Source: an uncultured Gemmatimonadaceae bacterium
GTDB lineage: Bacteria; Gemmatimonadota; Gemmatimonadetes; Gemmatimonadales; Gemmatimonadaceae
Direction of reading: 5' to 3'
DNA: 64,000 nucleotides
Assembly: GCA_963829055.1 (NCBI GenBank)
Contig: CAWHHI010000009.1
Span: 1 to 64,000, forward strand
Shown here: piece after piece, positions 1,308-63,200 of the stretch
How the letters are laid out: every line of letters starts with the position of its first letter
How positions within the stretch are numbered: the first letter of the stretch is position 1
Translations under genes and position numbers: made by a program
Notes under the pieces: generated by a model
Told to the model about the DNA's origin: nothing
Seen by the model: only the letters and a program-made list of their open reading frames with translations
The model's database searches: none

Positions 1308-1460
1308 GGCCGCACGTTACCACCTCAGCCGCTCAGCGCGTCATCATTGCAGCGCACCGCGTGCCGATTCAACGCGGTCAGCGCCTAACGCAATTCAAGC
1401 GACGGCACAGCGAGCCGCCAACGCACTCGCGGTGGCCGCTCGCTCACGGTATCATGTGGC

Positions 1461-4167
1461 GTGACCTCCGGACCTACCGTACGCCCCGAAGATGTCCCGC
1501 TCCACGACGACGTGCGGTGGCTCGCCGCATCGCTCGGCAAGGTCATCCAGCGCCTGGAAGGCCAGGCGGCGTTCGAGAGCGTCGAGTCCCTGCGTCAGGC
1601 GTGCCGAGCGCGTCGCCACGGCGAGCCTGACGCGCCCACGCTCGACGCGTTGCTCGAGCAGGTGTCGGCGCTCCCCATCGAGCGCGCCGCGATCGTGGCC
1701 CGAGCGTTCACGCTCTTCTTCCTGCTGATCAACACCGCGGAGCAGGTCCACCGCGTTCGCCGCACCCGCGCGCACCGCTCGGCCGAGACCGACGCGCCGC
1801 AGCCCGGGGGAGCGCGGTGGGCCATGCGCACGCTCAAGTCGGAAGGGCACGACGCCGCGGCGGTGGAGCGCGCGATGCTGTCGCTGGACGTTAGGCCGGT
1901 GCTCACCGCGCACCCCACCGAGTCCACGCGACGGACGCTGCTCGGACTTCAGGCGCGCGTCGCCGACATGCTGCTCGAGCGCGAGGGTGCGCCGCCGGCC
2001 GACCGACGCGTCATCGAGGACCAGCTCGATGCCGAGGTGGAGTTGCTCTGGCTGACCAATGAGGTGCGCGACGATCGTCCCACGGTGATGGACGAGGTGA
2101 GCACGGTCATCTGGTATCTCGAGACGCGCCTGCTCGACGCGAGTGAGCGCGCGAGGGCAACGCTCGTGCGCGCGTTCGAGGAGGAGTTCGCCGCGACGTC
2201 CGAGTCGCTCAGAAGCTCGGTGCCGCTCACGATCGGCAACTGGGTCGGCGGCGACCGCGACGGCAACCCGTTCGTCACTCCGGAGGTGACCATCGCGACC
2301 GCGCGCCGCGCCAGCTACGCGATACTCGGCCGGTACGCCGCCGCGCTCGACGAGCTGGTGGAGCGTCTGTCGGTCTCGGCCGCGCTGGCGGAGCCGAGCG
2401 ACGCGCTGCTCGGGTCGATTGCCAGCGACGCGGCGCTCCTGCCTAACGTCTACGAGGCGAACAAGCGACGCAACGCGAACGAACCGGTACGCCTCAAGCT
2501 CACGCTGATGCGCGCGCGCGTGGACGCCACGCGCCGACTCACCGCGGCACGGGACGCCGGGCGCACCGCGGAGGAGCCGGCCGCCTACGCCAGAGCGGCC
2601 GAGTTGGAGCAGGACCTCCTGCTCGTGCGCGAGAATCTCGTGAATGCCGGCGCGACGCGCGCGACCGAGGCGACGATCGATCCACTGTTGGCGATGCTGC
2701 GCGCGCACGGGTTCTACGGATACGTGATGGACATCCGCGACCACGCCGACTCGCACCGCGAGGCGGTGGCGGGGAAGAACCCGCGCGTCCTCGAGACCTT
2801 TCGGGCGATTCGCGCGATCCAGGACGAGATGGGCGAGCGCGCCGCGAGCACGTACATCGTCTCGATGACGACCGAGCCCGCCGACCTGCTGCGCGTCCTG
2901 CAGCTCGGCACAGAGGCCGGGCTCGTGGCTCTCGATGAGATCCCTCCCAGGTCGAGTCTCGACGTGGTGCCGCTGTTCGAGACGCGAGCCGACCTCGAAC
3001 GCGCGCCCGAAGTCATGGGCGCGCTACTGCGCGATGAGCTGTACGTTAGGCAGCTGCGCGCGCGCGGCAACCGGCAGGAAGTGATGATCGGCTACTCGGA
3101 CTCGGCCAAGGATGCCGGCATCCTGGCGTCGGCGTGGGCGCTGTACGAGGGGCAGGAGCGTCTCGCGACGCTGTTCGCCGATGCGGGCATCGCGCTCGAG
3201 CTCTTCCACGGCCGAGGGGGAGGTGCAGGGCGCGGTGGTGGGTCGCCGGTCTATCGCGCGCTCGCCGCGCTGCCGCCGGGGACGGTGAACGGACGCATCA
3301 AGATCACCGAGCAGGGCGAGATCGTCTCGCAGCAGTTCGGATTGCTGCCGGTGGCCGAGCGTACGCTGGAGGTGACGCTCGCGGGCGTGCTGATGCAGCA
3401 GTTCAATCCCGGGCCGGACGATCCGTCAGAGACGGAGCTGCGTGAGTTCCGTGATACGATGACCGACCTCGCGCAGCGCGGGCTCGCCGTGTATCGCGAG
3501 CTCGTACACGAGGATGATGCGCTGTTCCGGATGTTCCGCTCGGTGACGCCGGTCGATGCGCTCGCGAACGCGCGGTTCGGGTCGCGTCCCTCGTTCCGGC
3601 CGGGTGGGAAGGAGGGCATCGAGGGGATACGGGCGATTCCGTGGGTGTTCGGGTGGACGCAGATGCGGCTGATGCTTCCGGGGTGGCTCGGGGTCGGAAC
3701 GGCGTTAGGCTCATTACGTGGAGACGGCGGGTGGGCTCGACCTGTTGCAGCGCATGGCGCGGCGCTGGCCGTTCTTCGACGATCTCCTGAGCAAGATCGA
3801 GATGGTGTGCGCGAAGGCGGACATGGAGATCGCGCGGCTCTACGTCGAGACGCTCGGCGGGGACGTTAGGCTGTTCGAGCGTCTGGAAGCGGAATACGAC
3901 GCGACGGTCAGCGCCATCCTGCGGATCAGAGAGAGCGATGTGCTGATGCGGGACACGCCGGTGATCCAGTCGGCGATCATGCTGAGGAATCCGTACGTGG
4001 ATCCCTTGTCACTCATCCAGGTGTCGCTGCTGCGGAGACGAACGGTGGGCGGAGGGGACGAGCACACGGCGGGCGATTCGACGTCCGACCCTACGGCTCA
4101 CACCGTTGATTCCGTCCTGTCGACGACGCTGAGCGGTATCGCACAGGGTCTGCGAAACACGGGGTAG
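1461..4167 (+). CDS. ppc: Phosphoenolpyruvate carboxylase (frameshift near 3715)
   Basis: VLTAHPTE, GGDRDGNP, QEVMIGYSDSAKD, FHGRGG, RAIPWVF, LRNPY and terminal GLRNTG motifs across ORFs 1461..3869 and 3718..4167. Confidence 0.95.
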
Positions 4168-4180
4168 GTTGCGCAGGTTG

Positions 4181-5505
4181 CTACCGGCCAACGGCGACGC
4201 ACGTGCCCGGCGGTTTCCCCGCGCGTGGAACGGCGTGGTCGCCGCCGGGGACTCTGGCGTAGATTGCCGAAGCCCGTTCGAGAAAAGTCTGCGCCGCTTT
4301 GCAGTCGCCTTGTGCGGCGAGCACCGGAGCCATCTCGACCAGCCAACCGGCCGTCTCCGCGTCCCACGTTGCCATTCCCTCGACGGTGAACCCGAGCACC
4401 TCGCGCGCGAGATTCGCCGCGCCCCGGTCGTCGCCCCGGTGATGCCGAAGCATGGCGAGTTCCAGCACTGTCCTTCCATAGTCGATGTCCCCGCTTGCGA
4501 CCTTGCGGTAGACGTCCACGGAACGGCGGAGCATCTCTTCGGCTCCCGCGAGGTCGCCACGCAGTCGTGACATGGCGGACAAGTTGGCGAGGCTGCCGGC
4601 GACGTCTCGGTGGTACTCGCCGAGTGCGCGCAGGCGTCCCTCGAGGACCTCGCGCTGCATGCGCTCCGCCGTAACGAGGTCGCCTCGGTCCTTGATGATC
4701 AACGACAGCTGGGATTTCGTGGACAGGGTGGCCGGATGGCCGGACCCGAGCCGTCGCTCCTGGATCGAGAGCGCCCGACGTGCCGCTCGCTCGGCACCTT
4801 CCCTGTCGGCGGCGCTCAGTATCCAGGCAAGGCGCGTGAGCCCACTCGCGACTCGCGGATGGTCAGGTCCGAACAGGTGCTCGTTGATCGCGATCGATCG
4901 TCGCACGAGCTGTTCGGCGCCGGCGTCATCTCGCGCCAAGGAGCGCTCGATGGACAGTCCGTCGAGTGCGTGCGCGAGCTCGGACCTCTCTTCGTGCTTC
5001 TCCAGAATGACGATTGCCTGCCGAAGCAACCTGCCGGCCTCGACGTGGTCACCCCAGTCGCGGCGGACCGCGCCCAGTTCAATCAGCGTGGCCGCCACTT
5101 CCGGATGGTCCGCCGGGAGGACGCCTGACGAATCGCCAACGCGCTCCGAAGCCATGCCTCGCAGGATTCGTAGGAGTTCTCCAGACGCAGCGTCGCCCCG
5201 AGCTCGTGAAAGAGACTTGCCAGCCCGCAGTCCGTGCGGTCGTTAGGCGGAAGGACGCGGCGGCGCTCGTCGATGGCCTGGCGGAACAACGTCTCGGCCG
5301 GCGCGTAGCTCCCAAGGTTGCGACGGATCACGCCGAGTTGGTGCAGCAATTCCACGCGCACGTCAGGCTGTCCCGCCAGCTCACGCTCGATGCGCGCGGC
5401 GGCAGCGTCGAGCGGTCCGCGTGCGTTGACGCCACTGCTGGTATCTGCCGGCTGGAACGGGTCCGCTTCGCGAAACATCCCGACCAGAAAGCCCGTGAAT
5501 CCCAT
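4181..5505 (-). pseudogene. 5'-truncated TPR-repeat region of a Ser/Thr kinase-TPR protein
   Basis: TPR repeats (GPDHPRVA, GSGHPATL); begins at FLVGMFREADP, equivalent to the post-membrane segment of the kinase at 46552-49592; no kinase domain; frameshifted near 5100-5155. Confidence 0.65.
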
Positions 5506-6052
5506 GCGACCTCAGTTCCACATCGCCAGCCTGTTCGTGCTCGCATCGTCCATCCCGGTTGCTGGCTGCGACCCGTCGCCGGTTGCCGCCACGCCAACGG
5601 GCCCGTCGCGTGCGGCTGCCGCCGATCCGGCAGCCGCGCGTTCAGTGCCTAACGCGGCTAACGAATCGCCGCAGGAGCGCGCCGTGCTGGCCGCGATGGA
5701 GGCGCTCAAGCAGGCGATCATCGATGCGGATGTCGCTGAGCTCGCCCGCACGTGGACCGACGACTACACGTTCATCAACCCGCAGGGTGCGATCGTGACG
5801 CGCGCGCAGCGACTCGCGAACCTCGCGTCAGGCAACACCGACGTGAGCGTCATCGACGACGAGCGTGAGATTACGGTGCGCGTGTACGGCGACATGGCCG
5901 TCGTGCAGAACCTGTCCACGCTGCACGGCCGTTTCAACGGCGTCCCGACCGACACCGACCTGCGCGGCACCTTCGTATGGATCCGCCGCGACGGTCGCTG
6001 GAGGCTCGTCACCAATCAACTCACTGCGGTAACGGTCTCACCGTCGAGCTGA
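5504..6052 (+). CDS. NTF2-like (DUF4440) lipoprotein
   Basis: Signal peptide ending VAGC; DDYTFINPQG...VRVYGDMAVV...WIRRDGRWRLV. Confidence 0.85.
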   Translation: MRPQFHIASLFVLASSIPVAGCDPSPVAATPTGPSRAAAADPAAARSVPNAANESPQERAVLAAMEALKQAIIDADVAELARTWTDDYTFINPQGAIVTRAQRLANLASGNTDVSVIDDEREITVRVYGDMAVVQNLSTLHGRFNGVPTDTDLRGTFVWIRRDGRWRLVTNQLTAVTVSPSS

Positions 6053-6175: not shown

Positions 6176-6727
6176 CTATTGCCCAAGTGTTCGGATGTCC
6201 GCTGCCACATCGGAAAGATCGTCGTCGAGCTGATGGTCCCGCCTCTCGAGGCGGCGAACCACGGCGTGCGGAAGCGCCCGCTCGAAGAGGTCGACGTGCG
6301 CGAACGGTACCGTCTGGTCATTGCTGCCGTGATACAGGAACACCGGCGTCCCGGCCGGAAGCCTCGCGGCAAGAGGTCTCGGCAGCTCGAACTCGTCGTC
6401 CGTCCACCCGCCGTCACCTACGAAAGCTGCGGCGATGAGAAAAATGCCGCCGGCCCTGCCTTTGAGCCCGCCCTCGGCGAGAAACCTGATGAGCATCGTT
6501 GCGCCGATGGAATGGCCGACGAGGATCACGCCGTCGTGGCTCGTCGCCACCACGTCCGCCAGACGTGGCCGCCACGCCGGGTATTCGGGCGATGACTCGT
6601 TAGGCATCGTCGGGTAGCGGACATCGTACCCTGCACCCAATTCGTTGCGCAAGCTGGCCACGAGCCTGCCGTCCTCGGCGTGGGCGCCCTCGCCTCCGCC
6701 CTGAACGAACACCACTTCTTTCTTCAT
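6176..6727 (-). CDS. Alpha/beta hydrolase (YdeN/RBBP9-like)
   Basis: GHSIG nucleophile elbow, HGSNDQTVP, C-terminal His. Confidence 0.85.
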   Translation of the reverse strand: MKKEVVFVQGGGEGAHAEDGRLVASLRNELGAGYDVRYPTMPNESSPEYPAWRPRLADVVATSHDGVILVGHSIGATMLIRFLAEGGLKGRAGGIFLIAAAFVGDGGWTDDEFELPRPLAARLPAGTPVFLYHGSNDQTVPFAHVDLFERALPHAVVRRLERRDHQLDDDLSDVAADIRTLGQ

Positions 6728-6933: not shown

Positions 6934-7137
6934 CGGCAGGCTAGGGGAGCGGGCTCTTCGCAGGGGAGCCCCGCCAGGCTATCCGGCAGACGGCATGCCG
7001 CCAGCGGAGGTGACAGCGTTCAGACGAGGCTGCATTCGCAACTGCGAGGTCGAGGAATCCCCCGTGCCTAACGTGTCGGTGCTGCCGTGCTGAGCTTCTG
7101 TTCGAGGTGATCGAGTATGCTCATGAGCGCCTAACGC

Positions 7138-8273: not shown

Positions 8274-8485
8274 TGCTGTTGATGCCGTGGGTCGGGTCGC
8301 TGTCCGCGGAATCGCGACGGCCTCGTACGTGCTGAACGCGTGCCTGATGTTCCCGAACGCCTCGCTCGTGCGCGCGATCTCGCGTTCGCTGAACCCGTGT
8401 ATCGTCATGGTTGCCTCCCGCCTTCGGTCGACGTGAACGGACAATGCGTCGACGCAAGGCCAGGGCGCCTAACGTGGTCGACGCC

Positions 8486-10222
8486 TCATTGACGCGTCGC
8501 GTTCCGCTCCACCTGCGCCATCATGATCCGCAGCAACTCCTGATTCGTCCACGGCTGCCACCCATGCGGCTTGAGCGGACGCCCGTACTCGACCGTCCCC
8601 GCATAGTACGGCCCTTTCCCCGGCTCCTTCGTGCTCTCGAGGAACGTCTCCATCCGATACACGCCGAGGTTGAGGAAGTAGTTGTCCATGTCCCCGACCG
8701 CGATGTGCAGCTTCCCCACGAGCTGCGGGCCTAACGTCTTCCAGTTCCGCTCCACGTAGTCGCGCAGGTCATACCCCTTCGCGCGCATCTCCTCCGCGAC
8801 CGCCTTGTCGATGTGGCCCGTCCGCTTGTCCCACAGCGGCTTCGGGTAGCCGTCCGCACCCACCGGCGCCCACGCGGCCTGCCAGCCGTCCCACTGGCCG
8901 CCCGAGCGGCCCTTCGACGCGATCACGAGCTCCGCCTGGTTCTCCTCTCGCACCGTGAGCTCCGTGAGGCCCTCGATCGTGCGGCTCGACGGGATCTCGC
9001 GCGGCAGCCACGAGCCGTCGGCGTTCACGAACGCGTTCGTGTCCGCGTAGATGTTGCCGAACTGATAGTTGCGGAAGTCGAGCTGGTCGGGGTAGAGGCC
9101 CCACGCGCCGCCGAACACGTTAGGGTAGTGGATCTGCAGCGCCAGCACGTCCCACCCGCCCGTCGAGCCGCCCGTCAGCACGCGCGCGTACGGCGACGCG
9201 ATCGTGCGGAATCGCTTGTCGATCTCGGGGATCAGCTCCTGCGTGATCGCGTCGCCATACGGGCCATTGTTGGCCGAGTTGAGGACGTAGCTGTCGTCGT
9301 AGTACGGGGTCGTGTGCTGGATGAAGACCGCGATCACCTCCGGCACCTTGCCCGTCGTCCACGCCTGCTGGAGCTCGCATCCCGGGCTCGCGATTCGTGC
9401 GCGCGAGACGCGCGGCCCTCGCCTCCGCGGTCTCCGGCTTGTCGCACCCCTGGAGCGTGAAGCCTAACGGGGGACGCTCGCTGTAGTGCCCGACAGTGTA
9501 GACGACCGGATAGCGCTTCGTCGTGTTCTCGGCGTAGCCCTTGGGCAGCAGGACGACGGCGCCTAACGGCATGGGGTGACCCCAGAACGCGCTCGCGAGC
9601 TTCGACGTCATGTGCACGCGCTTCACCCACTCGGTCTCGGTCTGCGCGGCGACCTGTGGGATGACCTTCGCGAGCGACAGCGACACGGTGGTCTTCTTCG
9701 CGGGGTCGATGTGCACCTTCCGCACTTCACTGATAAGCGAGCCCGGGGATCTATTGAAGCGCTGCCCCTCGCCGGCATCCATGTGCGCCCAGATCGTGTG
9801 GCCGTCGCTGCGCTTGAACTGCGTGTACGGCAGGATCATCCCCTGCACGAAGTAGTCGCCGGCGGGCAGTCTGCTTGAGCGACGCGACGGGGAAGCCGGG
9901 GACGGTCGGGTCGATCGTCACCGCCTTGCCCGGCGGCGAGCGCCTCGACGTCCACGCCGAAGAACGGCTCGCTCCCGCGGTCCGGGCCCGATTGCAGGCG
10001 CGGCTCCTCCTTGTCGGTGCGCGCGACGAACAGGAACGCGCGTCCGGTGATCGGGCCGGCATTGGCGCCGGCCGGATAGGAGAGCTGGAAGGTCTGCGCG
10101 CGCGCCAGCCGCGGTGCGGCGATGCACGACAGGATGGACGACGCGAGGAGGGCGAGGCGCGTTAGGCGCCGCCGGGCCGCTCGCGAGGCGAGGGCGCGCG
10201 AAGAGGTGCGGTGAGCAGGCAT
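8486..10222 (-). CDS. Secreted esterase-family alpha/beta hydrolase (several frameshifts)
   Basis: Signal peptide; VLLPKGY...YPVVY, NNGPYGDAITQELIP and GGSTGGW motifs across three ORFs. Confidence 0.8.
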
Positions 10223-12996: not shown

Positions 12997-13428
12997 AAAG
13001 GCGGCGGCGTTCGGCGCAGGATGGCGTTCGAGTAATACCTCTTCCATGTCGAGTGCACGTCGCCGCGAGATCACAGTCGCGCCTAACGCTGGAATCGCGA
13101 CCTGCGCGCGTCGTACGACGGTGGGCGGGCGATCGTCCGAACGAGAATGTGGCACGGACTCCTCCGGCGTCGGCACCTAACGCGGATTGTCGACGACTGG
13201 TACGCCGTTAGGCGGCGAGCGGTGGGAGTGGAGCGGTGAAGGGCGGGCGCCGGCGGTGAAAGGTCGCAGCGTCATGCGGGCGCAGTCGCGACGAGCATCG
13301 AGCGCTGTATGGGCGCCACGCTGCGTGTCCGTTTCGTTAGGCCATCCACGTACTAATCAGTGGAGGGGAAGTGCCCCTGCTCGCACGTATGCAGACGCGG
13401 CCGACGCCGCACACGAAGGAGGAGGAAA

Positions 13429-14211: not shown

Positions 14212-15732
14212 TCAATGGATCTGAATGTTGCCACCATCGATCGGTGTGGTGACCGGCGCGTTCTGCGCTGCTCCGGGCTGCGTGTCGTAGAGGACCGACG
14301 TGCCGGCCGCGTTCCACAGCTCGATACGGATTGCGTCCGCGTTGCTGCCGTGGCGGCCCTTCTGGCCATCCACGGCCGTGATGCGGAAGCGAGCCGCGAC
14401 GCCGTTCACCGTCCCGGTGCCCCAGAACTGCGCACGGTTGCCAGAAACGATGAGCATCTCGATCGCCGTGCTCTCGAAGTTCAACTGTGCGCCCGGGATC
14501 CAGAACTTCGCGTTCCCGTCAGGCACCGTCTGGCCGTGGAGGAACCTCACGGTGAAGGTGAAATGCGCCTTCGCATTGCCCTGTCCGGGCACGTCGTAGA
14601 ACCCGCCGCCGGTGGTGAACGCGCCTTCCGGATTGATGACGGGCGGGCGGAACTCGAGTGTCGCGACGCGGTCGGCGAAGACCACCTGTCCGCGATTGTT
14701 GATGGCGGTAACCGACGTCATTCCCGTCAGCGGGAAGACGTCCTCCATGCCGTCCGTCTCGGTCCACACGAAGCCATGTCGCTCGAGGGCCGCAGTGTAG
14801 CTCTCGCCGACGACCTGTCCCAGGTCGTTGACATCGCTCGCGATAGTCGAGCGGCCGACCGCGCCTAACGTGCCGATGTCGCGCATGCCGTCGCGCGGGG
14901 TCCAGAGAAACGCTCGGACGGAAGGCGGCCCACTGTTGGTGCGGCCGACGACCCACCCTGCTTCGTTGAGGGCCAGCGCGACCGTCGGTTCGCCGCCGAG
15001 ACTCCCGAGGTCCCGTGTCCCGGTGCCGGGTGTCCAGAGGAATGCATGATCCTCTTCGCCGAAGCGCGCGGTGCCGGCCAGCTGCCCGGCATTATTGAAG
15101 TCGATTACCTGACCGGGGATGCCGGTGCTCGCGGCGAGGTCCTGCATTCCCCCGCCTGGTGTCCAGAGGAACATTCTGCCCGCGCCAGTCGCCGAGCTGC
15201 TGAGGCCTATGACGCGGCCTTCATCGTCAATGGCGCGGGCGTAGCTGTAGACGCCATCGTCCAAGGTGCCGAGATCCTGCATGCCTGTCCCCGGTGTCCA
15301 GAGGAACGCATGCCATGTCTGGCTCCCCGTGAGGTCGGCGTAGCCCGTCACCTGTCCGGCGTTGTTGATGCCCACGGCGTAGCTGTGAAATCCACCGAGG
15401 GTTCCGAGGTCTTGCATGCCTCCGCCCGACGTCCAGAGGAAGGCGTGCGTGCGCCCGGCGGACGTGTTGCTCCAGCCAACCACCTGGCCGGCATCGTTGA
15501 TGTCGGCGGCCATCGTGGTCGCCCCGCCTAACGTCGGCAGTACGGTGACACTGGCGCCTACGACGGCGGCGCGCGGTACTGTGCGGCTGGCGATCGACGG
15601 ACTCGTCGGAAGCTTGTCGGGCTGCTGGTCGCACGCGGCCGCCCCGATGAGAGTCGTCAGGATCCCGACCAGCGCACGACGTACAACGTGTACGGCGGCG
15701 GGTCCGCGGATCGGTTGGATGAGATGCTTCAT
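14212..15732 (-). CDS. Extracellular HAF-repeat lipoprotein with C-terminal beta domain
   Basis: ATG at 15732 (MKHLIQ); AAAC lipobox; repeated INDAGQVVG...HAFLWT.G.GMQDLGTLGG. Confidence 0.85.
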   Translation of the reverse strand: MKHLIQPIRGPAAVHVVRRALVGILTTLIGAAACDQQPDKLPTSPSIASRTVPRAAVVGASVTVLPTLGGATTMAADINDAGQVVGWSNTSAGRTHAFLWTSGGGMQDLGTLGGFHSYAVGINNAGQVTGYADLTGSQTWHAFLWTPGTGMQDLGTLDDGVYSYARAIDDEGRVIGLSSSATGAGRMFLWTPGGGMQDLAASTGIPGQVIDFNNAGQLAGTARFGEEDHAFLWTPGTGTRDLGSLGGEPTVALALNEAGWVVGRTNSGPPSVRAFLWTPRDGMRDIGTLGAVGRSTIASDVNDLGQVVGESYTAALERHGFVWTETDGMEDVFPLTGMTSVTAINNRGQVVFADRVATLEFRPPVINPEGAFTTGGGFYDVPGQGNAKAHFTFTVRFLHGQTVPDGNAKFWIPGAQLNFESTAIEMLIVSGNRAQFWGTGTVNGVAARFRITAVDGQKGRHGSNADAIRIELWNAAGTSVLYDTQPGAAQNAPVTTPIDGGNIQIH

Positions 15733-17896: not shown

Positions 17897-18136
17897 AGAG
17901 GCCTCCTCACTGCACGAGAGGGATGCAGAGGCCCCATTCGTCGGGCGCGTCTCACCAGCCCTCTGCGGCTCAAGGTAGGCGTCTAGCGACGCGCATCAGT
18001 CCGGCCGTGCCTGAGCTTCCGTCCGGATATGTCCGACGTGGAATAGCTGTATCAGGCGTATAGGGCAGGAGGAGCCCGGTCAGCGAGTATGAGATGCTCC
18101 TCGGCGCTGCACGTCCGCGATGCGGGCGGTCGCTGC

Positions 18137-23009: not shown

Positions 23010-23223
23010 CGCGGATCCGCGATCCGCTGGCACGCCTAACGTGTCGAGGACCGCCACGCGACGGCGACGACCGCGAAGGAGGCGATCTCGACCGCGGACG
23101 CACTCAGGCGCCAGACGCGTATGGGTCGCGTCGGGGCGAGAACACGAGGCTGGATGGACCAACACCGCGATCGCAAAGGCGACGACATAGCCGGACGCTA
23201 CCATGACTGTCCTGGCGGCGGTC

Positions 23224-24358: not shown

Positions 24359-24383
24359 GCGCGCCGCGCTCGCCGTGGTATTG

Positions 24384-40554: not shown

Positions 40555-40636
40555 TGTCCATTGGCGTTAGGCACGTGTACGACGACATCGAGCGGGTGAC
40601 GCAGGCGTAGACGATGCGGTTGATCCCGGTCGAGTG

Positions 40637-46551: not shown

Positions 46552-49500
46552 CTATGGGCGCGCTGACGCCGCACCGCGAGCGATCGAATCGACCGCGCCG
46601 GTGCGACCCTGCGCGAGTCGACGGAAGTCCGCCTCGTCCGAGGAGCGGTTCAACGCCGCGTAGTGCTCCGCAAGCGCCGTGTACGCAGCGTGAAATGCTG
46701 ACCCAGATCGCGGGCCAGCGGCTGGAGGATCGACGCCGCGCGGTCGAACAGCGCTCCCGATTCCATGGTCTCTGCCCCGACGGGCCAGGAGATCGGCAAG
46801 CAGCGCGCGCCACCACGCCGCTCGCCAGCGGGTCGGCGGCCCATTCGTCTCCATGATGGCGAGCGCTCGTCGAAGATCGGCTTCCGCCTCCACTCGACGT
46901 CCGGCCGCCGAGCGCACACGAGCGATGTCGAGTAGCGCGCGCGCGACGCGGTCATGTCGCGGGCCCACCGTTCGTTCGAGCGTCGCGATGGCGTCGCGAA
47001 GGATCGCCTCGGCTTCGGCAAGACGGCCCTGCGCCGCCAGTTGGCCCGCGACCGCGCTCATGGCGTCGGTGACCATGGGATGGTCGACACCGAACGTCCG
47101 GCGTTGCGCGTCCAGCATCTCCCGCGCGAGTGCCTCGGCTCGCACGTGGTCGCCGCGGTCGGAGACGATCCCGGTGAGGCCAGAAAGAGCACCAGCGAGA
47201 TTGGGAAGCCATCGCGGTGGTTGCTTGCGGAGGATCTCGACCGCGCGGGTGTAGAGCGACTCGGCCTCGGCAGGGCGGTTGAGGTGCCCGTCGAGCAGGT
47301 CTGCCAGGTGGATCATGCTCGTTGCGGTGATGGGGTGCTCCGGCCCCAGGCGGCGTGAGCGGATCTCCATGCTCTCGCGGAAAGGCAACGGCTCGCAGGT
47401 GGTCGCCACGCGCGTGGGCAAGGTGCTCGAGCCCCGGCAACGCACCGGCGAGGCGCACGGTCGGTGTAGGCGACCTTGCCGCAGACATCGATCGCGCGAT
47501 AGTACAGCGACTCTGCTGCGACTGGCTGGCCGCGGTGGAGCCGAAGCAGGGACTCCGCCAGGTAGGATCATGCTGAGCGTCGCGCTGCTCTGGTCGGTCC
47601 CGTTAGGCGCTCGCGGATGCGCAGGCTCTCGCGGAGCATGTCTTCGGCCGCGTCATAGTTCGATCGCGCGATCAGGACATCGGCGAGGTCGTCGTCGGTG
47701 GTAGCGACTGCTGCGGCCTCCGGTCCGACGGTGGCGCGCTGGATGTCACGCGCCGCACGATAGAGCGACTCTGCCGCGGCGACGTCACTGGTCCGCGTCG
47801 CTATCTTCGCCAGCGCCAGCGCGACATCGGGGTGCTTCGGTCCGAGCACGCGTCGCTGAATGGCCAGCGCCTCGCGTGACAGCTGGAGCGCCTCCTCACG
47901 CCGGTCCGTCTGGAAAAGGACGTTGGCCAGGTTGGTGAGTGTGGTGGCGACATCGCGCGTGATTGTCACCAAGGTGGGAACGACGCAGCTCGAGCGCCCG
48001 ACGCAGCATCCGCTCGGCATCGGCGAACCGCCCGAGCTGATCGTTCACTCGCCCGAGCGCGTCGAGCATCTGCGCCTGCACGACCGGCTGTCCGGCCAGT
48101 TGTTCGACGCGCGCCGTGCCGGTCACGAGCATGTCCCTCGCCATCACCTGCTCACGCGTCGCGCCGGGCGGCGCCGGCGTCCGGAACAGCCTAACGAGAA
48201 AGTCCGTGACCGCGTTCGACTGTCCCAGGGCCTGCTCGGCGCGGTCCCGCTCGCGCCGGGCGTCCGCCGCTTGCCGGACGGCGACCGTCGTCGCCGTCAC
48301 CAGCGAAACCCCCACGACGGCCGCGGCCGCCACCTTCATCCGGTGCCGGCCGAGAAACTTCCGCGCGCGATACCAGCGCGTGGCGTGGTGGGCGAGCACC
48401 GGCAGCCCGTCGAGATGCCGCTGGACGTCCTCCCACATGATGTCCGCGGACCCGTAGCGGCGCGCAGACTCCTTCCGCAGCGCCATCATCACGATGGCGT
48501 CCAGGTCGCCCTCGAGGCGTCGCCTCAGCCGCTCGACGGAAAGACCGCGTTCCGCGGCGACCACTTCCGGAGTCGGGTCGGTGGTGGCGGGCTCCGCCGA
48601 GCGACCCGACTCGGGGCGACTCACGGCGACGCTGGGGAGCCGCGGGTCACGGGCCAGATGATGACCTCCGCCAGCTCGTGGGCGGAGCCACTCGTTATGC
48701 GGTGGGGCCGCCGGCCGCTCAGCAGCTCGTAGAGCAGCACGCCGAGGGCGTAGACGTCACTCGCCGTCGTCAGCGAGTCGCCGCGTATCTGTTCGGGGCT
48801 CGCATACTCCGGCGTCATCACGCGCCACTCCGTCCGCGTCAGCGGCTGGTCGGCCGGTCCGAGCACCGGGTTCACGAGCTTCGCGATGCCGAAGTCCAGC
48901 AGCTTCACCCGCCGGTCTTCGGTGACGAGGATGTTGGTCGGCTTGATGTCGCGATGAATGACGAGATTCTGGTGGGCGTGGTGCACCGCGGCGCAGACGT
49001 CGTGGAAGAGACGCAGCCGCTCCTCGACGCCGAGCCGTTGCCGGTCGCAGTACGTGGTGATCGGGACGCCATCGACGTACTCCATGACGAGGAAGGGCAG
49101 GCGTCCCTCGGTGACACCGCCGTCGAGGAGCTGCGCGATGTTCGGATGGTTCAGCGACGCGAGGATCTGACGCTCGGCGAGAAAGCGGCGCTGGAGGTCG
49201 TCGGCGTCGGGACTGGCCCGCAGCACCTTGATGGCGACGCGCCGTCGATACTGGCCGTCGGAGCGTTCGGCGAGGTAGACGATGCCCATTCCGCCGCGCC
49301 CGAGCTCGCGGAGGACGCGGTAGGGCCCGATCTGTTCGATGCGGAGTGTGGCGATCAGGTCGCCGGCCAACTCGGCGGCGTTGCGGTCGAGCAGCCCATC
49401 GCTGCTTTCGGCTGCGGCGAGCAGCGTCTCGACTTCCGCACAGATGGAAGGATCGTCGGTTTGCCCGCGCAGCCATGCGGCACGCTGGTCCGGCGGCTGG

Positions 49501-50166: not shown

Positions 50167-50440
50167 CTCTATCTCCGGCGTCATGAGGTTTGGTAGTGGC
50201 CGCGAGGTGTCGCGGCGGATCGGCACAACAAGATATACCGTGTTGGGCGCCGGGGTGCCCGCCGAGACGCTGGCATCTCGGCTCCGTCCCCAGCGGAACC
50301 GAGCGCTGCCTAACGCTCTGGCCAAGCCGCGAGCGAAGTGAGCGTGGACAGGCAAGCGCCGTCGCCCGTCCCGCCACGGGGATCAATTCCGCGCGGCGGC
50401 CCTCGCTCGGCGATTCACCCGTGAGCACATTCCAGCCGCC

Positions 50441-53400
50441 ATGACAAGCCGGAGGACCGCGTTGTTCGTTTCCCATGTGCTCCCACATCACGCGCGGCGG
50501 TGCGCGATCGCCGCGTTCCTGATCGCCGCAATCGGCGCATCCGGTGCGGCCCAGTCGCCGGCACGGCGCGAACCGAGCACCGCGACCCCGTTCGCCGACA
50601 CCGCGCTCTTCGCCCCGTACACGTGGCGCAATATCGGCCCGAACCGCGGCGGACGCTCGATCACCGCCGCCGGCTCGCCAGGCCGACCTAACGAGTACTA
50701 CTTCGGCGCGACGGGCGGCGGGTTGTGGAAGACGACCGACGGCGGCACGAGCTGGGCGCCCGTCACCGACGGGCAGATCGCGTCGTCGTCGGTCGGCGCG
50801 GTCGCCGTCTCGGCGTCGACCCCCGACGTCGTCTACATCGGGATGGGTGAGACGGAGCTGCGCGGCAACGTCATGCAGGGCGACGGCGTGTATCGCTCCA
50901 ACGACGGCGGACGCACGTGGGTCCACCGCGGCCTTGGCGCCACGCAGGCTGTTTCCCGCATCCGCATCGATCCCACCGATCCCAACCTGGTGTACGTCGC
51001 GGCGCTCGGGTCTCCGTTCGCGCCTAACGACGAGCGCGGCGTGTTTCGCTCGCGCGATGGCGGCGCGACGTGGAGCCGAGTGCTGTTCAAGGGCCCGCGT
51101 GCGGGCGCGGTCGATCTGGTCATCGATCCCTCCAACCCGCGCGTGCTGTACGCGACACTCTGGGAAGTGTACCGCCGGCCGTGGCAGCTCTGGAGTGGTG
51201 GCGCCGGCTCGGGGCTGTACAGGTCAACCGACGGTGGCGACACCTGGACCGAGCTCACGCACAATCCGGGGTTGCCGACCGGCGTGTTAGGCAAGATGAC
51301 GGTCGCGGTGTCGCCGGCGGACCCGAATCGCGTCTGGGCGAACATCGAAGCGACGGAAGGCGGACTGTATCGGTCCGACGACGGCGGCGCGACGTGGACC
51401 CACATCAACGCGGACCGCGACCTCTGGCAGCGCGCGTTCTACTTCCTGCGCATCGTCGCCGACCCGAAGGATCGCGAGACGGTGTACGTCCTGAGCTTCC
51501 AGCTCGAGAAGTCCACGGACGGCGGGAAGGCGTTCGCTACCGTCGCGACGCCGCACGCCGACCATCACGACCTGTGGATCGACCCTGACGATCCGCGCCG
51601 CATGGTGGAGGCGAACGACGGCGGGGCGATCGTCTCCGTGAACGGCGGGCGAACGTGGACGAATCAACGCTACCCCACGGCGCAGATCTACCGCGTCGCG
51701 ACGACGGACGAGTTTCCATACCACGTCTGCGGCGCGCAGCAGGATAATACCACGGTGTGTGTGCCGAGCAGCGACAGCCATCTCGCGGAGCCTGATGCTC
51801 GTTCGGGTGACTGGTACTATGCGGTGGGCGGCGGCGAGTCTGCCGACATCGCGCCCAAGCCGGGCGCTCCGGACATCTTCTTCGCCGGCGCCACCAACAC
51901 GCTCACGCGTTATGACCGTCGCACCGGCGTGTCGCGCGACGTGCAGCCGTACCCGCGCATCGTGATGGGCGAGCCGGCGTCGGCGATGCCGGAACGCTGG
52001 AACTGGACCTATCCGATCGCGGTCTCGCGCGTCGATCCGCGCATCCTGCTCGTGGGTTCGCAGCACCTCTGGAAGTCTGTGGACGACGGCCGCACCTGGC
52101 GGAAGATCAGCCCGGACCTGACGCGCGCCGACTCGTCGACGATGGGAAACAGCGGCGGTCCGATCGTCTTCGACCAGGACGGGCCGGAGATCTACGCCAC
52201 GATCTTCACGATCGCTCCATCTCGCCGCGACACGTCCACGATCTGGACCGGTTCGGACGACGGTCTCGTGCACGTCACGCGCGACGGCGGCAAGACGTGG
52301 CGCAACGTCACGCCGCCTAACGTCCCGCCGAACACGCGCATCAGCCGCATCGACGCATCGTGGCACAACGCCGGCGCCGCGTACGTGGCGGCCGAGCGGC
52401 ATCGAGATGAACGACAGGGCGCCGTACATCTGGCGAACGCGTGACTACGGCGCCACGTGGACGAAGATCACGGACGGCATCGCGGACGGCGACTTCGTTC
52501 GCGTCGTGCGTGAGGATCGCGAGCGCGCCGGACTGCTCTTCGCGGGAACGGAACACGGCGTCCGCGTCTCGTTCGACGATGGCGCGCACTGGCGATCGCT
52601 GTCGCGCAACCTGCCGGACGTGCAGGTCTCGGATCTCGCTGTCGAGAAGCGTGACCTGGTGATCGCCACGCATGGGCGGTCGTTCTGGATCCTCGACGAT
52701 CTCTCGTCGCTGCGTCAGATGACGCCGGCGATGCTGGCGGGAGGACCGTCTGCGGGAATGGCTCTGGCAAAGCTGATGCGCCCGGCCGATGCCATCGGTC
52801 GCGTCGGTCGCGCGAACCTCGACTACTATCTGCCTACCGCAGCGGACAGCGTCGTGCTCGAGATTCTCGATGCGAGCGGTGACCGCGTTCGCACGTTAGG
52901 CATTGCGGCAGGGCCTGCCGCGCGTGGGGCCGGGTTGCATCGCGTTCAGTGGGACCTCCGCTACCCGGGCGCCACCTCGTTCCCGGGTATCGTCCTCGAA
53001 GGCGGCGATCCTCGTCGCGGCGTGTGGGCCCCGCCGGGTCGCTACCGCGCTCGGCTCACCGTCCGCACGGGCACGTCGGTCGTCGTGGATTCGCAGCCGT
53101 TGAACCTGACGCGGGATCCGCGCGTCACCACGGTGACCGATGCGGACCTGCGCAGCCAGTTCGACCTGGCGCGTCGGATTCGCGACAAGGAGAGCGATGC
53201 GAACGGCGCGATCGTCGGCATTCGTGCGCTGCGTGCGCAGCTTCGTGAGCGGGAGGCCGCTGCTGGGCGACAATCACCGAGTGACGCCGCGCGTCGCGTG
53301 GCGGCCGACATCGCACGGCTCGACAGCGCGATCTCGCAGGTCGAGTCCACGCTCTATCAGGTGAGGAACAAGAGCCCGAAGGACAAGATCGCGTTCCCGA

Positions 53401-53618
53401 TCCGGGTCAACGACCGCCTAACGGGGCTCCGGTCGCAGGTGGACGATGGCTACGCGCGACCAACGGATGCACAGCGGGCAGTGTTCCGGGAGTTGGCGGC
53501 GGAGGTGGATCGGTCGCTCACGACGCTGTCGAGCGTGTACGCTCAGCAGCTCACGCGCGTGAACGAGTCGCTGCGTCTGGCGAAACTCCCGGAGGTCGGG
53601 ATGACGTTCGTGCGGTGA
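50441..53618 (+). CDS. VPS10/sortilin-like BNR-repeat glycosyl hydrolase (frameshift near 52405)
   Basis: WRNIGP.RGGR, repeated S.DGG.TW, DHHDLWIDP and ATHGRSFW motifs. Confidence 0.92.
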
Positions 53619-55615: not shown

Positions 55616-55663
55616 GCCTAACGCCAAGCTGAGCTGACGGTCAGCTTCAACGATTTGTTAGAC
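55616..55663 (-). other. Integron attC site
   Basis: Minus strand GTCTAAC-AAATC-GTTGAAGCTGAC-C-GTCAGCTCAGC-TTGGC-GTTAGGC: R''/L''/L'/R' boxes with an extrahelical base, 9 bp after a stop codon. Confidence 0.8.
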
Positions 55664-55672
55664 GCGGCCGGT

Positions 55673-55890: not shown

Positions 55891-56792
55891 ATCCCGCGGA
55901 TCGCATCGCGGGCCGCGCGTACAGCATCATGCAATCGCGCCTGACCGCGGCACCGAAGGGTTACTTCGGCACCTACGACATCCCGATCGTACGCGGGCGC
56001 GATTTCGAGACGGGCGAATACTCGCATGCATCCGACGATCCCTCGCGCCCGTTGGCAGTCGATCGAGCGATCATCGGAAGCGACCTCGCGCGCCGACTGT
56101 GGGGTGACGCCAATCCATTGGGCCGGCGTCTCACGATGGCATTCTCGGAGCCATCCAACTCTCCCGCGCTGGTCGTGGTCGGTGTGGTGAACGACGCGAG
56201 CGCGACCGCGAGTCTTGGCGATCAGGTCCATGTATACGTGCCGTATTCGCCGATCAACACGGGAGTCATTGCGCGCACCGCGGGACCCGCGTTGCCCATG
56301 CTCAATGCGATGCGAAGCGTCGTGACGGCCGAAGCGCCGCAGCTGCCCATCCGCAGAGCGCAGACCATGGAGCAACGCGAAGCCGAGTCTCGTCGCAGTA
56401 TCCTGCGGACCAGCGGAGCGGTCGCGGGGGGCGGACTGCTGGCGCTGCTGTTGTCCGCGATCGGACTCTACGCGGTCGTGTCGTTGGCGGTCGGGCAGCG
56501 CACGCGAGAGATCGGGATTCGGACGGCGCTCGGTGCGCGGCGCAGTCAGGTTGTTCGGCTGTTCTTCGCGCAGGGCCTCGCTTTGAGCGCGTTAGGCATC
56601 ATGCTCGGGTTGCCGCTCAGCATGATCGTCACCCGGGTCATCGTGACGACGCTCGCCTGGCCGCTCACCAGCTCACCACTACTCGGCATTGCGATCGGGG
56701 CGCTGGTGCTCGTCGTCGCGTCGGTCGCGGCGTGGATTCCGGCGCGGCGCGCCAGCACGATCGATCCGCTTCTGGCGTTGCGGATCGAGTAA
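55887..56792 (+). pseudogene. C-terminal fragment of MacB/FtsX (ADOP-type) ABC permease
   Basis: GLYAVVS..V.QRTREIGIR.ALGA and PARRAS.IDP motifs; N-terminal part absent. Confidence 0.8.
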
Positions 56793-58630: not shown

Positions 58631-58646
58631 CCTGGCCGCGCTCGCG

Positions 58647-59221: not shown

Positions 59222-60220
59222 TCACCGAATCACGCGATCGGCCTGGGTGAGAAGCGCCTTCGGGAGCGAGAGTCCAAGACCACGGGCCGCACGTCGGTTG
59301 ACCGTGAGGAAATACCTCGCAGGATATCGAATCGGCAGGTCGCCTGGCTTCGCGCCTTTCAGGATCTTGTCCACGTACTCCGCCGCGATTCGGTACTGTT
59401 CTTCGAGATCGGGCGCCCAGGTCATCAGCCCACCGGCCTCGGCGAACAACGTCGCCTGATAGACCGCGGGAAGGCGGTGCGTGGCCGCGAAGTCCACGAT
59501 GACCTGCCGGCTGGCGAGCGAGAGTCCGCCCTGGAAGTTCGCCAGCCCGTTCATGCCGTCGGCGACCATGGACGCGAGCGCGGGTTGCAGCTCACTCGGC
59601 GACGTCACGCGATACACTTTCACACTCACGCCCAGTGTGGATGCCGTCTGCTCGGCGTCGGCGAGCTGTACTTCGTGCCCGCCAACTCCGGGCGTCGTCG
59701 AGAGCAGCGCGATACGGGACACGGCAGGCGCGGCCGCCTTCAGCAGCGTTAGGCGTTTCGCGGTGACGCCCGGCGGCAGCTCGTCGATGCCCGTGGCGTT
59801 GCCGCCGGGATGCTCCAGCGTGCGAGCGAAGCCGTTGCTGACCATCCCCGGGCACGTCACGATCACCATGGGCATCACGGGATTGGCCTTCCGGATCTCG
59901 AGTGCGTACGGTAGCGCTCCCGCGACGATGAAGTCGAGATCCGACCGCGCGAGCGCCGCCGCGGCTTCCGGCAGCGCCGCGGTATTCGACGCGCCCCGCT
60001 CGATGAGGCGGGTCTCGACTATCAGATTCTCTCCTGGGACGTAGCCGAGGGCGCGGAGCGCGTCGTTGAACGCGGCGACGAGTGATGGCTCGTTGCCGGT
60101 GATGAAGCCGATCCGCCGTGGCGCTCGCAGCCTAACGTGACGCGTGATCGACGTCAGCGGCAGCGCCACCCCAAGCACCGCGAGGCGGCTCACGAAAGCG
60201 CGTCGACTGTGGGTACTCAT
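59222..60220 (-). CDS. ABC transporter substrate-binding protein (ABC_sub_bind type)
   Basis: [30 protein letters not shown] and LL.QAD.VI motifs; RRAF Tat-like N-terminus. Confidence 0.9.
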
Positions 60221-60233
60221 GGCCGCCTCACTG

Positions 60234-63200
60234 CTACAGGGGAACTATCCCGAGCCTGATCTCCGTTCCGTCGCCCACCTTGCCCGCGATGCCATTCGGC
60301 ACGGCGGAGTAGGTGACCTCCAGCGCGAGCGTCTCGCTCCGGATCAGCGCCTCGTGCGTGCGCGCCGCCGACGCGACGTTGCTCCGGCGCATCGATGGTT
60401 AGGCGCGATCCGATCCGACACCGACGAGCCCCATGTCGCGCCGCGCCTGCTGGATCGCTCGCACGAGGTCGCGCGCGAGCCCCTCCGCCTCGAGCTCCGG
60501 CGTGACCGCCGTGTCGAGCACGACGATGCCCGAGCTCGCCCGGCAGCTCGGCCGCCGCGCCCGCGTCGCGTCGACACGAGGCGTCGCTCGTATTCGCCTT
60601 CGCGCAGCTCGATGCCGTCCGCGACCACGCGCGCCCGACGGCGACGTCGTCCAGTGGCCCGCCTTCACCGCCTTGATCACGTGCTGCACGTCCTTGCCGA
60701 GTCGCGGACCAGCGGCGCGCGCGTTGACCGTGATCTCGAACGCGCCGTGCGCGGCGACGTCGGTCGTCAGCTCGACGTCCTTCACGTTCACCTCGTCGCG
60801 GATGAGATCGACGAACTCCCGCAGCCGCTCCGCATCCGCCGCCGCGACGCGCAGCTTCGCCAGCGGCAGCCGCACGCGCAGCTTGTTCGACGTCCGCAGC
60901 GCGAGCGCCGTCGAGCACACCTGACGCACGCGGTCGATCGCGCTCGACGAGGGCCGAGTCGTTAGGCAGCGAGTCGACGAGGGGCCAGTCGGTGAGGTGC
61001 ACGGATCGCCCGCCCGTCAGCCCGCGCCAGATCGTCTCCGACGTCAGCGGCAGCGAGCGGCGCGACGACGCGGCACGTCACCTCGAGCACCGTGTGCAGC
61101 GTGTCGATCGCGTCGCGGTCGCCCGCCCAGAACCGATCGCGCGACCGGCGGACGTACCAGTTCGTCAGCGCCTCGAGGAACTCGCGCACCGTCGCGCACG
61201 CGCCCGCGAGATCGTACCGGTCCATCTGCGACTCGACGTCCGTCACCAGCTCGTTCGTCTTCGCGAGGATGTACCGATCCAGGATGTGCCGCGAGTCCGT
61301 CCGGACCGTGCCTTCCATGTTCTCCGCGTTCGCGTAGAGCGCGAGGAAGTAGTACGTGTTCCAGAGCGGCAGGAGCGCCTCGCGCACGGCATCGCGGATG
61401 CCCGTCTCGGTCACGATCAGATCGCCGCCGCGAAGGATCGGGCTCGCCATGAGGAACCACCGCATCGCGTCCGAGCCGTCGCGGTCGAACACCTCGCGCA
61501 CGTCGGGATAGTTCTTGCGCGACTTGGACATCTTCTGCCCGTCGTTGCCTAACACGATGCCGTGCGCCAGACACGTGCGGAACGCCGGCCGGTCGAAGAG
61601 CGCGGTCGCCAGCACGTGCAGCGTGTAGAACCAGCCGCGCGTCTGGCCGTTGTACTCGACGATGAAGTCGCCGGGGTAGTGGTGCTCGAACCACTCCGCG
61701 TGCTCGAACGGGAAGTGCACCTGCGCGAACGTCATCGACCCCGACTCGAACCAGCAGTCGAGCACCTCCGGCACGCGGCGCATCGTCGACTTGCCCGATC
61801 GGATCGTCCGGGTTCGGGCGCGTGAGCTCGTCGATGCCTGGACGGTGCAGGTCCGTCAGGCCTCACGCCGAAGTCGCGCTCGAGCTCGGCCAGCGAGCCG
61901 TACACGTCGACGCGCGGGATACTTCGGGTCGTCCGAGACCCACACCGGAATCGGCGAGCCCCAGTATCGGTTGCGCGAGATCGACCAGTCGCGCGCGTTC
62001 TCCAGCCACTTGCCGAACTGCCCGTCGCGGATGTGCTCGGGCACCCAGCGGATCTGCTGGTTGAGCTGCACCATGCGGTCGCGGAACTTCGTGACCGCGA
62101 CGAACCACGAGCTCACGGCGCGCTGGATGAGCGGATTGTCGCAGCGCCAGCAGTGCGGGTACGAGTGCTGATACGTGTCGTGGCGGAGCAGGGCGCCCGA
62201 CGCCCTGAGATCGCGGATGATCGTCTTGTTCGCCTCGAACACGTGCATGCCCTGGTACGGCGGGACCTGCGCGTCGAACTCGCCGCGCGAGTTCACGGGC
62301 GTGACCGGCTCGATGCCGGCGGCGTCGGTGACGACCTTGTCCTCCTCGCCGTACGCCGGCGCGATGTGCACCATCCCGGTGCCGTCCTCGGTCGTCACGT
62401 AGTCGGCCGAGCAGGATCTGGTGCGCGTTAGGCTGCTTGCCGGCGAAGAAGTCGAACGGCGGCGTGTACCGCGTGCCGACGAGCTGCTGTCCCGGTGAAT
62501 CGCGCGAGCACCGGCGGGTGCCTCGCCGAGCTCGCGCGCGTACGCGGCGACACGCGCCTCGCGCGAGCAGGTAGCGCTCGCCGTTCGGCGCCTGCACGAC
62601 GACGTACTCGACGTCCGGATGCACCGCCGCCGCGAGGTTCGACGGCAGCGTCCACGGCGTCGTCGTCCAGACGAGCGCCTCGACGCCCTGCGAGCTCGGG
62701 CTTCGGTGACGTTAGGCGCAAGCCGACCGTCACCGCCGGATCCTGACGGTCGCGGTAGACGTCGTCCATCTTCGTTTCCGTGTTGACAGCGGCGTCTCGC
62801 AGCGCCAGCAGTACCACAGCACGCGGAAGCCCTCGTAGATGAGCCCCTTGTCCCAGAGCGTCTTGAACGCCCACATGACGCTCTCCATGTAGGAGAGGTC
62901 GAGCGTCTTGTAGTCGTGGTCGAAGTCCACCCACCGTGCCTGACGAGTGACGTAGCTCTGCCAGTCGTCGGTGTAGCGCAGCACGGACGCGCGGCAGGCG
63001 TCGTTGAACTTCGCGACGCCCATCGCCTCGATCTCGTTCTTGTGCGCAGATGCCTAGCTGCTTCTCGGCTTCGAACTCCGCGGGCAGGCCGTGGCAGTCC
63101 CAGCCGAAGCGACGCTCGACGCGTCTGCCCTCGCATCGTCTGGTAGCGCGGGACGACGTCCTTGACGTAGCCGGTCAGCAGGTGGCCGTAGTGCGGGAGG

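Follow-up and report, generated by a model that had tools for sequence, protein, structure and literature searches.

The question raised by this locus is why a single eight-base word should recur about once per kilobase through otherwise ordinary genes and spacers. The stretch analysed, called the window below, comprises positions 1 to 64,000 of contig CAWHHI010000009.1 (assembly GCA_963829055.1) from an uncultured Gemmatimonadaceae bacterium, and corresponds to C9:1-64000 in the source genome G000 (7,784,024 bases in 20 contigs, 86% complete). The word, CGTTAGGC, is 8 bp long and non-palindromic, with GCCTAACG as its reverse complement. A total of 61 exact copies have been counted between 1383 and 62717, 35 on the forward strand and 26 as GCCTAACG, close to the approximately 60 (about 34 plus about 27) given in a sequence-only reading of the window; all 11 example positions named there are present in the list of exact copies. 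Chance accounts for a mean of 1.15 copies and a maximum of 5, and none of 100 dinucleotide-preserving shuffles attained 61. The gross excess claimed earlier therefore stands, with the original expectation of 2-3 copies being slightly too high. The answer reached here is that CGTTAGGC is a lineage-specific recognition word in double-stranded DNA, and that codon effects, repeat elements and RNA signals do not explain it. A pressure acting on the word at the DNA level is established: copies lie on both strands and in all open frames, are denser where no protein constrains the sequence, are conserved and are specific to particular lineages.

The excess persists across the rest of the genome. G000 contains 5004 copies (2547 forward, 2457 reverse), or 0.64 per kb, and the word is present on all 20 contigs at a density of 0.48-0.80 per kb. 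Markov models predict 297 copies at order 0, 102 at order 2 and 258 at order 3, the excess over the order-2 model being about 49-fold; a model of maximal order masks the word, because its 6- and 7-mers mostly stem from the word itself. Among 8-mers seen at least 300 times in G000, CGTTAGGC has the highest ratio of observed to expected copies, and the next ranks are occupied by its own overlapping neighbours. The 15 bases on each side of the 61 window copies contain no conserved column and remain near background, which indicates a bare word and no repeat element.

Selection on the DNA motif rather than on codons had been proposed for the window, and the coding context supports it. Called open reading frames (ORFs) span 76% of the bases in this frameshifted assembly, so that gene-based figures for G000 are approximate; they contain 35 of the 61 copies in the window and 3281 copies genome-wide. 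The word is read there as xCG-TTA-GGC (1310 copies), xxG-CCT-AAC-G (919), xGC-CTA-ACG (607) and xxC-GTT-AGG-C (445), the four frames (TTA-GGC, CCT-AAC, CTA-ACG and GTT-AGG) having been correctly named beforehand, and 1310 of the 2871 TTA codons of the gene set (46%) sit in the word. Synonymous shuffles within genes (n=10) yield 160 +/- 12 copies, 20-fold fewer than the 3281 observed. The same result is obtained for multi-contig samples of two relatives assembled from short reads, namely G014, which belongs to another genus and has 62% G+C (260 kb, coding fraction 0.90; 11.7 +/- 3.2 expected versus 273 observed), and G005, a congener of G000 (242 kb, coding fraction 0.88; 6.0 +/- 1.7 versus 125). 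The word is 1.5-1.7 times denser in their non-coding DNA than in their coding DNA (1.74 versus 1.18 per kb in G014, 1.01 versus 0.59 per kb in G005), as fits a pressure restrained by protein constraint.

An artefact of composition, codon usage or assembly might be suspected on two grounds. A dicodon-chain null trained on G000's own genes predicts 1691 copies and so absorbs half of the 3281, and the G000 assembly is error-prone: the IleRS-like gene at 60300-63400 of the window (reverse strand) changes among all three frames every 100-300 bp, many ORFs match Pfam families only in part, and the assembly seems to carry many indel errors that break genes and inflate the apparent non-coding fraction. 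The dicodon null has been rejected as a decisive test, since it is circular, the word itself supplying most TTA-GGC pairs; the enrichment stays under it, as it does under the synonymous null. The artefact is refuted by the synonymous shuffles, by the same word in short-read assemblies, and by relatives of similar G+C that serve as a phylogenetic control and hold 6-50 copies, and its probability is negligible. Stops supplied by the word in G000 (187 CGT-TAG and 228 GCC-TAA) have been disregarded as inflated by frameshift errors; in the cleaner assemblies the word forms 16 of 205 stops in G014 and 3 of 187 in G005. A separate observation concerns the 205 genes of the G014 sample (L028-L047), where TAG is the commonest stop (90 TAG, 79 TGA, 36 TAA), an unusual preference for a genome of 62% G+C; the word accounts for only 11 of these 90 TAG stops.

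The earlier statement that many single-mismatch variants accompany the word is valid for four of them. In G000, enrichment was found for TGTTAGGC (T at position 1; 14.8x), CGTTATGC (T at position 6; 7.7x) and, at position 8, CGTTAGGT (T; 17x) and CGTTAGGG (G; 9.3x). Positions 2-5 and 7 are strict, with variants at 0.2-0.8 of expectation and the change of T4 to C as the exception (2.1); none of the changes at positions 2, 3, 5 or 7 shows enrichment. The tolerance profile is identical (T at position 1, T at 6, T or G at 8) in the G014 and G005 samples, and its occurrence in two genera shows that the variants are real and implies one word-reader.

The layout of the copies is equally characteristic. 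Absence of a Chi- or KOPS-type polarity (KOPS, FtsK-orienting polar sequences) had been anticipated from the two orientations and is confirmed by comparison with GC skew: across 145 intervals of 50 kb, the strand bias of the motif and the skew give a Spearman coefficient of 0.16 (p 0.06), and the top skew quartile holds 579 forward and 531 reverse copies, the bottom quartile 563 and 582, without a replication-strand skew. Close neighbours are depleted in either orientation, with 30 observed versus 160 expected from a Poisson model at 0-50 bp, 41 versus 155 at 50-100 bp, 63 versus 150 at 100-150 bp and 81 versus 145 at 150-200 bp, parity being reached from about 250 bp. This depletion of short gaps in G000 recurs in the G014 and G005 samples.

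Comparison between species reveals both retention and turnover. Alignments of G000 with G005 (140 kb, 80% identity) contain 43 common sites, 33 sites present only in G000 and 36 only in G005; the retention of 43 of 76 sites is 2.7 times better than the 20.6% identity among all 8-mers. The alternative states at unshared sites include the one-step forms CGTCAGGC (9 sites) and CGTTAGGT (7) and the common-codon form CGCTCGGC (5), which is at least two steps away. Alignments of G000 with G014 (73.8 kb, 72% identity) contain 8 common sites, 15 only in G000 and 61 only in G014, with 10.8% of all 8-mers identical. Shared and unique sites together indicate that the word is retained beyond background, yet gained and lost. 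It is written by base substitution into genes and spacers, in both orientations, where the protein tolerates it, and is then kept.

The distribution of the word is patchy. Among 41 relatives, all 7 species of G000's genus are rich (2501-5112 copies), and the richest genome of all is G014, with 6360 copies in 5.1 Mb; a few of the remaining relatives are intermediate (170-600) and most have 6-50 copies. Across 401 genomes of the phylum Gemmatimonadota, hyper-abundance is confined to scattered genera, which belong to three families of a single order. Genus g46 combines three species of approximately 3500-4100 copies with G294, which has 66. Key contrasts pair the rich G241, G298 and G402 with the poor G294, and genera g1, g9, g44, g45, g46 and g49 with their poor sisters. 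A contig of a metagenome-assembled genome (MAG) labelled 'Gemmatimonas sp.' carries the word at 0.70 per kb. Two further phyla were sampled and gave no similar abundance: in that of an Actinomycetes-labelled MAG, none of 401 genomes exceeds 62 copies, and in that of a Myxococcales-labelled MAG one of 301 genomes reaches 408, the others having at most 108. In the 408-copy genome (G921) the word is as frequent as the control word, and elsewhere in that phylum it lies far below the control, which amounts to a mild relative enrichment. An 'Actinomycetes' contig (L077, 4 copies in 2.6 kb) looks mis-binned, as it holds 4 of the 18 copies of that genome, and was rejected. These tallies take in unpublished genomes as single rows (G013, G086, G125 and G204, and 15 in the 401-genome sample from outside Gemmatimonadota), on which no claim rests.

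Near the starts of two G000 contigs, stretches of about 50 kb (C6:5441-55038 and C11:1-46790) contain just 1-2 copies. They encode housekeeping functions (aro/trp, FtsK, glutamine synthetase (glnA), FolD and EPS genes), which indicates that the word marks the DNA of the lineage and not particular genes; each probably stems from a recent import or from a chimeric join with a word-poor relative. Logan contigs were uninformative on the word, none of the 40 differences listed, of about 1000, falling inside a copy. A separate palindromic family of about 110-130 bp, similar to repetitive extragenic palindromes (REP) or miniature inverted-repeat transposable elements (MITE), has arms GTCATTCCGAGCG...CGCTCGGAATGAC and 686 core copies in G000 (e.g. 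C1:15293 and C3:13004; also L102:5380-5500), and accounts for the other enriched 8-mers of this genome. It has been rejected as a carrier of the word, because only 44 of the 686 cores lie within 50 bp of one, which is the chance level.

In the window, the copies are distributed as follows. The PEP carboxylase ORF (1461-3869) contains forward copies at 1889-1896, 3044-3051 and 3703-3710 and a reverse copy at 2441-2448, and it is terminated by the TAG of a forward copy at 3864-3871. Further forward copies are located within a beta-lactamase-family ORF (18791-18798), an M24 peptidase ORF (20480-20487) and a TonB-dependent receptor ORF (35285-35292, 35907-35914 and 36531-36538), and reverse copies within an M20 peptidase ORF (29094-29101) and an aconitase X ORF (32107-32114). 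The class I (IleRS-like) tRNA synthetase gene on the reverse strand contains forward copies at 60960-60967, where the true frame reads ..L-P-N-D.. (CCT-AAC), and at 62426-62433 and 62710-62717. The remaining exact matches on the forward strand are at 5241-5248, 6598-6605, 10160-10167, 13206-13213, 13335-13342, 16053-16060, 16481-16488, 21529-21536, 24353-24360, 26395-26402, 26948-26955, 27494-27501, 28090-28097, 40565-40572, 42232-42239, 43817-43824, 44102-44109, 46392-46399, 47601-47608, 52894-52901, 56590-56597 and 59747-59754. Those on the reverse strand are at 1383-1390, 5647-5654, 7066-7073, 7129-7136, 8467-8474, 8729-8736, 9462-9469, 9561-9568, 13081-13088, 14863-14870, 15526-15533, 18135-18142, 21928-21935, 22483-22490, 23034-23041, 40888-40895, 45880-45887, 48189-48196, 50308-50315, 51022-51029, 52315-52322, 53416-53423, 55616-55623 and 60130-60137. 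At the start of the window, at 44-743, a PIN-domain ORF and a small ORF upstream of it are likely to form a toxin-antitoxin pair.

The spelling of the word leads to integrons. The attC sites of integrons have an R' core GTTRRRY and an R'' core RYYYAAC, and the word includes GTTAGGC, as the sequence-only reading had pointed out; in relatives it is, letter for letter and together with the preceding base, the actual R' end of attC. In the word-poor genome G027 (L001, G027:C95:1-20000), same-strand copies recur every 480-750 bp, and 22 of the 23 octamers terminate an attC of about 95 nt with R'' GCCTAAC, paired L boxes and R' ..CGTTAGGC. The attC sites of G025 (L003, G025:C3) likewise have the word as R' end, and those of the word-rich, near-complete G305 (4 contigs; L274, G305:C2:839000-853000), 96-97 nt long, start with GCCTAACG and finish with CGTTAGGC. 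Pair scans of the viral collection IMG/VR (37 loci with opposite orientation and at least 120 hits with the same orientation; the 80 loci with retrieved flanks were examined) mostly returned integron arrays of 48-64% G+C with the word as R' end, the scan having selected for the word. Chromosomal cassette arrays are common in this order, and attC families are conserved within each array.

The dispersed copies are of another kind. No R'', L'' or L' partners accompany them, as there are no conserved flanks at the 61 window copies, and only 2 crude attC-like matches have been obtained in the whole of G000. The 5004 copies include 38 inverted word pairs within 59-154 nt, of which a few on C20 resemble attC; such pairs, at C20:173525 and C20:183882, lie 25-35 kb from a divergent IntI-like gene (C20:208041-208958, reverse strand; 265.7 bits at a cut-off of 265). 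A standalone IntI N-terminal domain at G000:C4:2862-3170 is a truncated remnant, and the octamers adjoining intI in G005, considered as attC sites, turned out to be dispersed copies. IntI scores above the cut-off in 24 of the 41 relatives, mostly word-poor ones; it was not found in the rich G002, G004, G010, G020 and G402, is in three frame pieces in G014, and is present in three copies in the word-poor G294. The suggested correlation with an integrase gene was thus not found.

Phage contigs also carry the word. L136, which encodes a holin, a large terminase, a portal and head proteins, holds 19 copies in its 15.2 kb, in both orientations and without attC flanks; L243 has 12 copies in 11.4 kb (terminase, portal, protease, capsid) and L252 has 22 in 18.7 kb (replication initiator, integrase). 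L246, L251 and L260 (46% G+C) hold 5-7 copies in 8-13 kb inside structural genes, against an expectation of about 0.3. The identical flanks of their copies indicate that these three are apparently overlapping pieces of one phage, L246 being annotated as podovirus-like; its G+C is far below that of Gemmatimonadaceae. When hosts of the word-rich phage contigs were sought by tblastn, no named relative proved close.

A protein reading the word was sought among Vsr, RecC, methyltransferases (four families), AddB-like proteins, IntI, ComEC, DprA, ComEA and ComP, and none of these families names the reader; absences in G000 are weak evidence, given its 86% completeness and frameshifts. None of the 8 rich genomes yielded a Vsr match, against 4 of the 33 others, and RecC (PF04257) was found in one of 41 relatives, G019. 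Neither an N6_N4 (PF01555) nor a C5 (PF00145) methyltransferase was found in G000. N6_Mtase (PF02384), also not found there, occurs in one of 7 species of the genus and in many poor genomes, and orthologues of the single D12-class methyltransferase of G000 were seen in 7 poor genomes but not in G014. The proposed methylation or repair signal and the correlation with a methyltransferase find no support in these results for Vsr and the four methyltransferase families; N6_Mtase and D12 do not follow word richness. The AddB-like nuclease pair of G000 is present in 4 of 7 congeneric species and one poor genome, and not in G014; addB_alphas gave no match in G000. Of the 41 relatives, 40 have ComEC; DprA was detected in G000, as was an HHH_3 domain of the ComEA type.

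Five explanations of the DNA-level pressure have been ranked: an uptake-like drive, a chromosome-architecture site, an integrase-family reader, a self tag and methylation with repair, in this order. The one placed first, held tentatively and at less than even probability, is that the word is a DNA-level recognition tag maintained by transfer-biased drive, as for uptake sequences. By analogy with these, a putative DNA-binding reader would favour fragments bearing the word, possibly during uptake, possibly at a different stage of horizontal transfer and recombination, and alleles bearing the word would supplant alleles without it. One copy per fragment would suffice, which would account for the missing close neighbours. 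If the specificity of the reader were that of the integron attC R-box, local cassettes would thereby be tagged at their ends. The spacing, the coding behaviour and the one-off spectrum match descriptions of uptake sequences, hence the first rank, and the speed and patchiness implied by 66 versus about 4000 copies within one genus suit a drive better than site-by-site selection. Several facts weigh against the transfer-biased drive. The word is patchy and not family-wide, as genus g46 illustrates, and no other dispersed abundant 8-mer that could serve as a 'dialect' was found in 18 word-poor loci of at least 10 kb (18 of 22 loci, the other four being word-rich or integron arrays); the candidate CCGGTGTA in L087 is a 21-bp tandem repeat. 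No receptor was found, since ComP_DUS (PF16732) has no match in G000, or in 14 control genomes either, and ComEC, DprA and ComEA discriminate nothing, being present also in word-poor relatives and non-competent control bacteria. Phage contigs hold the word at host-like density within structural genes, and lytic phages are not passed on by transformation; the exact match in spelling to the attC end would have to be a coincidence or call for an additional assumption. The last two facts, phage saturation and attC identity, are those that the transfer-biased drive explains least well, and they keep alive a further, rather doubtful reading, that one reader, of the IntI family or an uptake receptor of like specificity, recognises both attC ends and the thousands of chromosomal copies. 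If that were true, horizontal DNA intake would be coupled to cassette capture in these soil bacteria, and the same pass-word would be borne by the chromosome, by cassettes (at one end or at both) and by some phages, spreading by drive where the reader is active.

A chromosome-architecture site, bound by a nucleoid or condensin-type protein and kept by selection roughly every 0.8-1.5 kb, with the protein covering about 200 bp and so shutting out close neighbours, is possible, although unlikely. Hyper-abundance and conservation across species resemble those described for HIP1 (highly iterated palindrome) in PMC5861425, the strands are equal without skew, and three genomes show exclusion over about 200-250 bp; however, weak selection over thousands of sites would have to explain how a single genus can span about 66 to about 4000 copies, phages without an obvious need for such a site are in some cases saturated, no candidate protein was found, and the identity with the attC core is unexplained. 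That identity is the strength of the next proposal, according to which an integron-type tyrosine recombinase or a relative reads the word, and each dispersed word is the attC R-box in double-stranded form. Such words might act in docking, in titration or as landing sites for cassettes, or might arise when strand exchange with an attC hairpin is aborted. The exact R' ends in G027, the word at both ends in G305 and the arrays of varied G+C speak for it, as does the rarity of the core, since about 0.4% of 8-mers contain any GTTRRRY and a chance match is thus unlikely; IntI in 24 of 41 relatives shows that integrons are common in the order. It is nevertheless an improbable account, ranked below the architecture site: IntI does not track richness, dispersed copies lack hairpin partners, landing sites within essential genes would do harm, and we know of no integrase reaction that writes bases into its target. 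Nor is the word an attG site, because genome insertion sites as described in passages of bioRxiv 10.1101/2022.09.11.507474 require only GWT and a CRGM motif, a consensus different from the word. Saturation of phage and prophage-like contigs, including capsid, portal and terminase genes, would be expected of a self tag against a nuclease or defence system with Chi-like logic, in which a helicase-nuclease spares word-bearing DNA and host and phages are selected to carry it; the patchy, accessory-like distribution typical of defence genes and the foreign-looking stretches without the word fit as well. This seems less probable again, for RecC was not found in 40 of 41 relatives, the AddB-like pair is sporadic, a replication-oriented skew is missing, exclusion of close neighbours is not predicted, and Chi words are far less over-represented than 50-fold. 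Least credible of the five, and very unlikely, is a methyltransferase that marks the word together with a linked repair bias of the very short patch (VSP) type that turns near-matches into it. HIP1 has been linked to methyltransferases, and the end variants TGTTAGGC and CGTTAGGT are C to T changes that would fit deamination of a modified cytosine, but the complementary G to A variants are not enriched, a single repair enzyme cannot correct all eight positions, and the occurrence of Vsr and of the methyltransferases does not follow the rich genomes.

To our knowledge, uptake-type genome tags occur in only two bacterial families. The uptake signal sequences (USS) belong to Pasteurellaceae and the DNA uptake sequences (DUS) to Neisseriaceae, where the DUS receptor is the minor pilin ComP. 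Full-text literature searches gave no paper joining Gemmatimonadetes with an uptake sequence and none on the word itself, the matches to the octamer, among those listed, being unrelated primers or constructs. USS and DUS are described as numbering hundreds to thousands of copies (PMC2346458, PMC2817400, PMC3630211). The resemblance to USS/DUS and to HIP1 claimed for the window is borne out for this non-palindromic word. As with USS and DUS, a short non-palindromic word is present at about one copy per kb on both strands, far above composition; it lies within genes against codon preference, is denser outside them, and is spaced more evenly than chance. It is also conserved yet turning over, missing from foreign-looking DNA, and accompanied by one-off variants enriched at the weaker positions, and DNA import machinery (ComEC, DprA, HHH_3) is present, though not discriminating. 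In contrast to USS and DUS, the word occurs in another phylum, has 8 bp without an extended flank consensus, is patchy by genus in three families instead of family-wide with dialects between genera, saturates phage contigs, and equals the integron attC end.

HIP1 has been without an assigned function for decades. PMC5861425 describes HIP1 (GCGATCGC) of cyanobacteria as 15-300-fold over-represented, conserved and of unknown function. Both are hyper-abundant octamers within genes and conserved between genomes, but HIP1 is palindromic and found in most cyanobacteria, whereas CGTTAGGC is asymmetric and patchy. With attC the word shares the R' end and the base before it in G027, G025, G305 and arrays of varied G+C; unlike attC, the 5004 dispersed copies have neither hairpin partner nor conserved flank, lie both ways in ordinary genes and do not track IntI. 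Chi and KOPS are likewise over-represented octamers spread round the chromosome; here, however, the replication-strand skew is missing, RecC was found in a single relative, and over-representation is far stronger than for those words. Unlike REP or MITE families, CGTTAGGC has no conserved sequence beyond its core and no hairpin unit, and the REP-like family of G000 is not associated with it, and unlike a methyltransferase or VSP target it has no cognate methyltransferase or Vsr found to track the rich genomes. The word is thus a third hyper-abundant one beside the uptake sequences and HIP1, here in a soil phylum rich in uncultured members. Close relatives with and without it offer sharp natural contrasts that should reveal the reader upon whole-proteome comparison, and its spelling, the same as that of the integron recombination core, points to a connection between the tagging of genomes and the traffic of cassettes.

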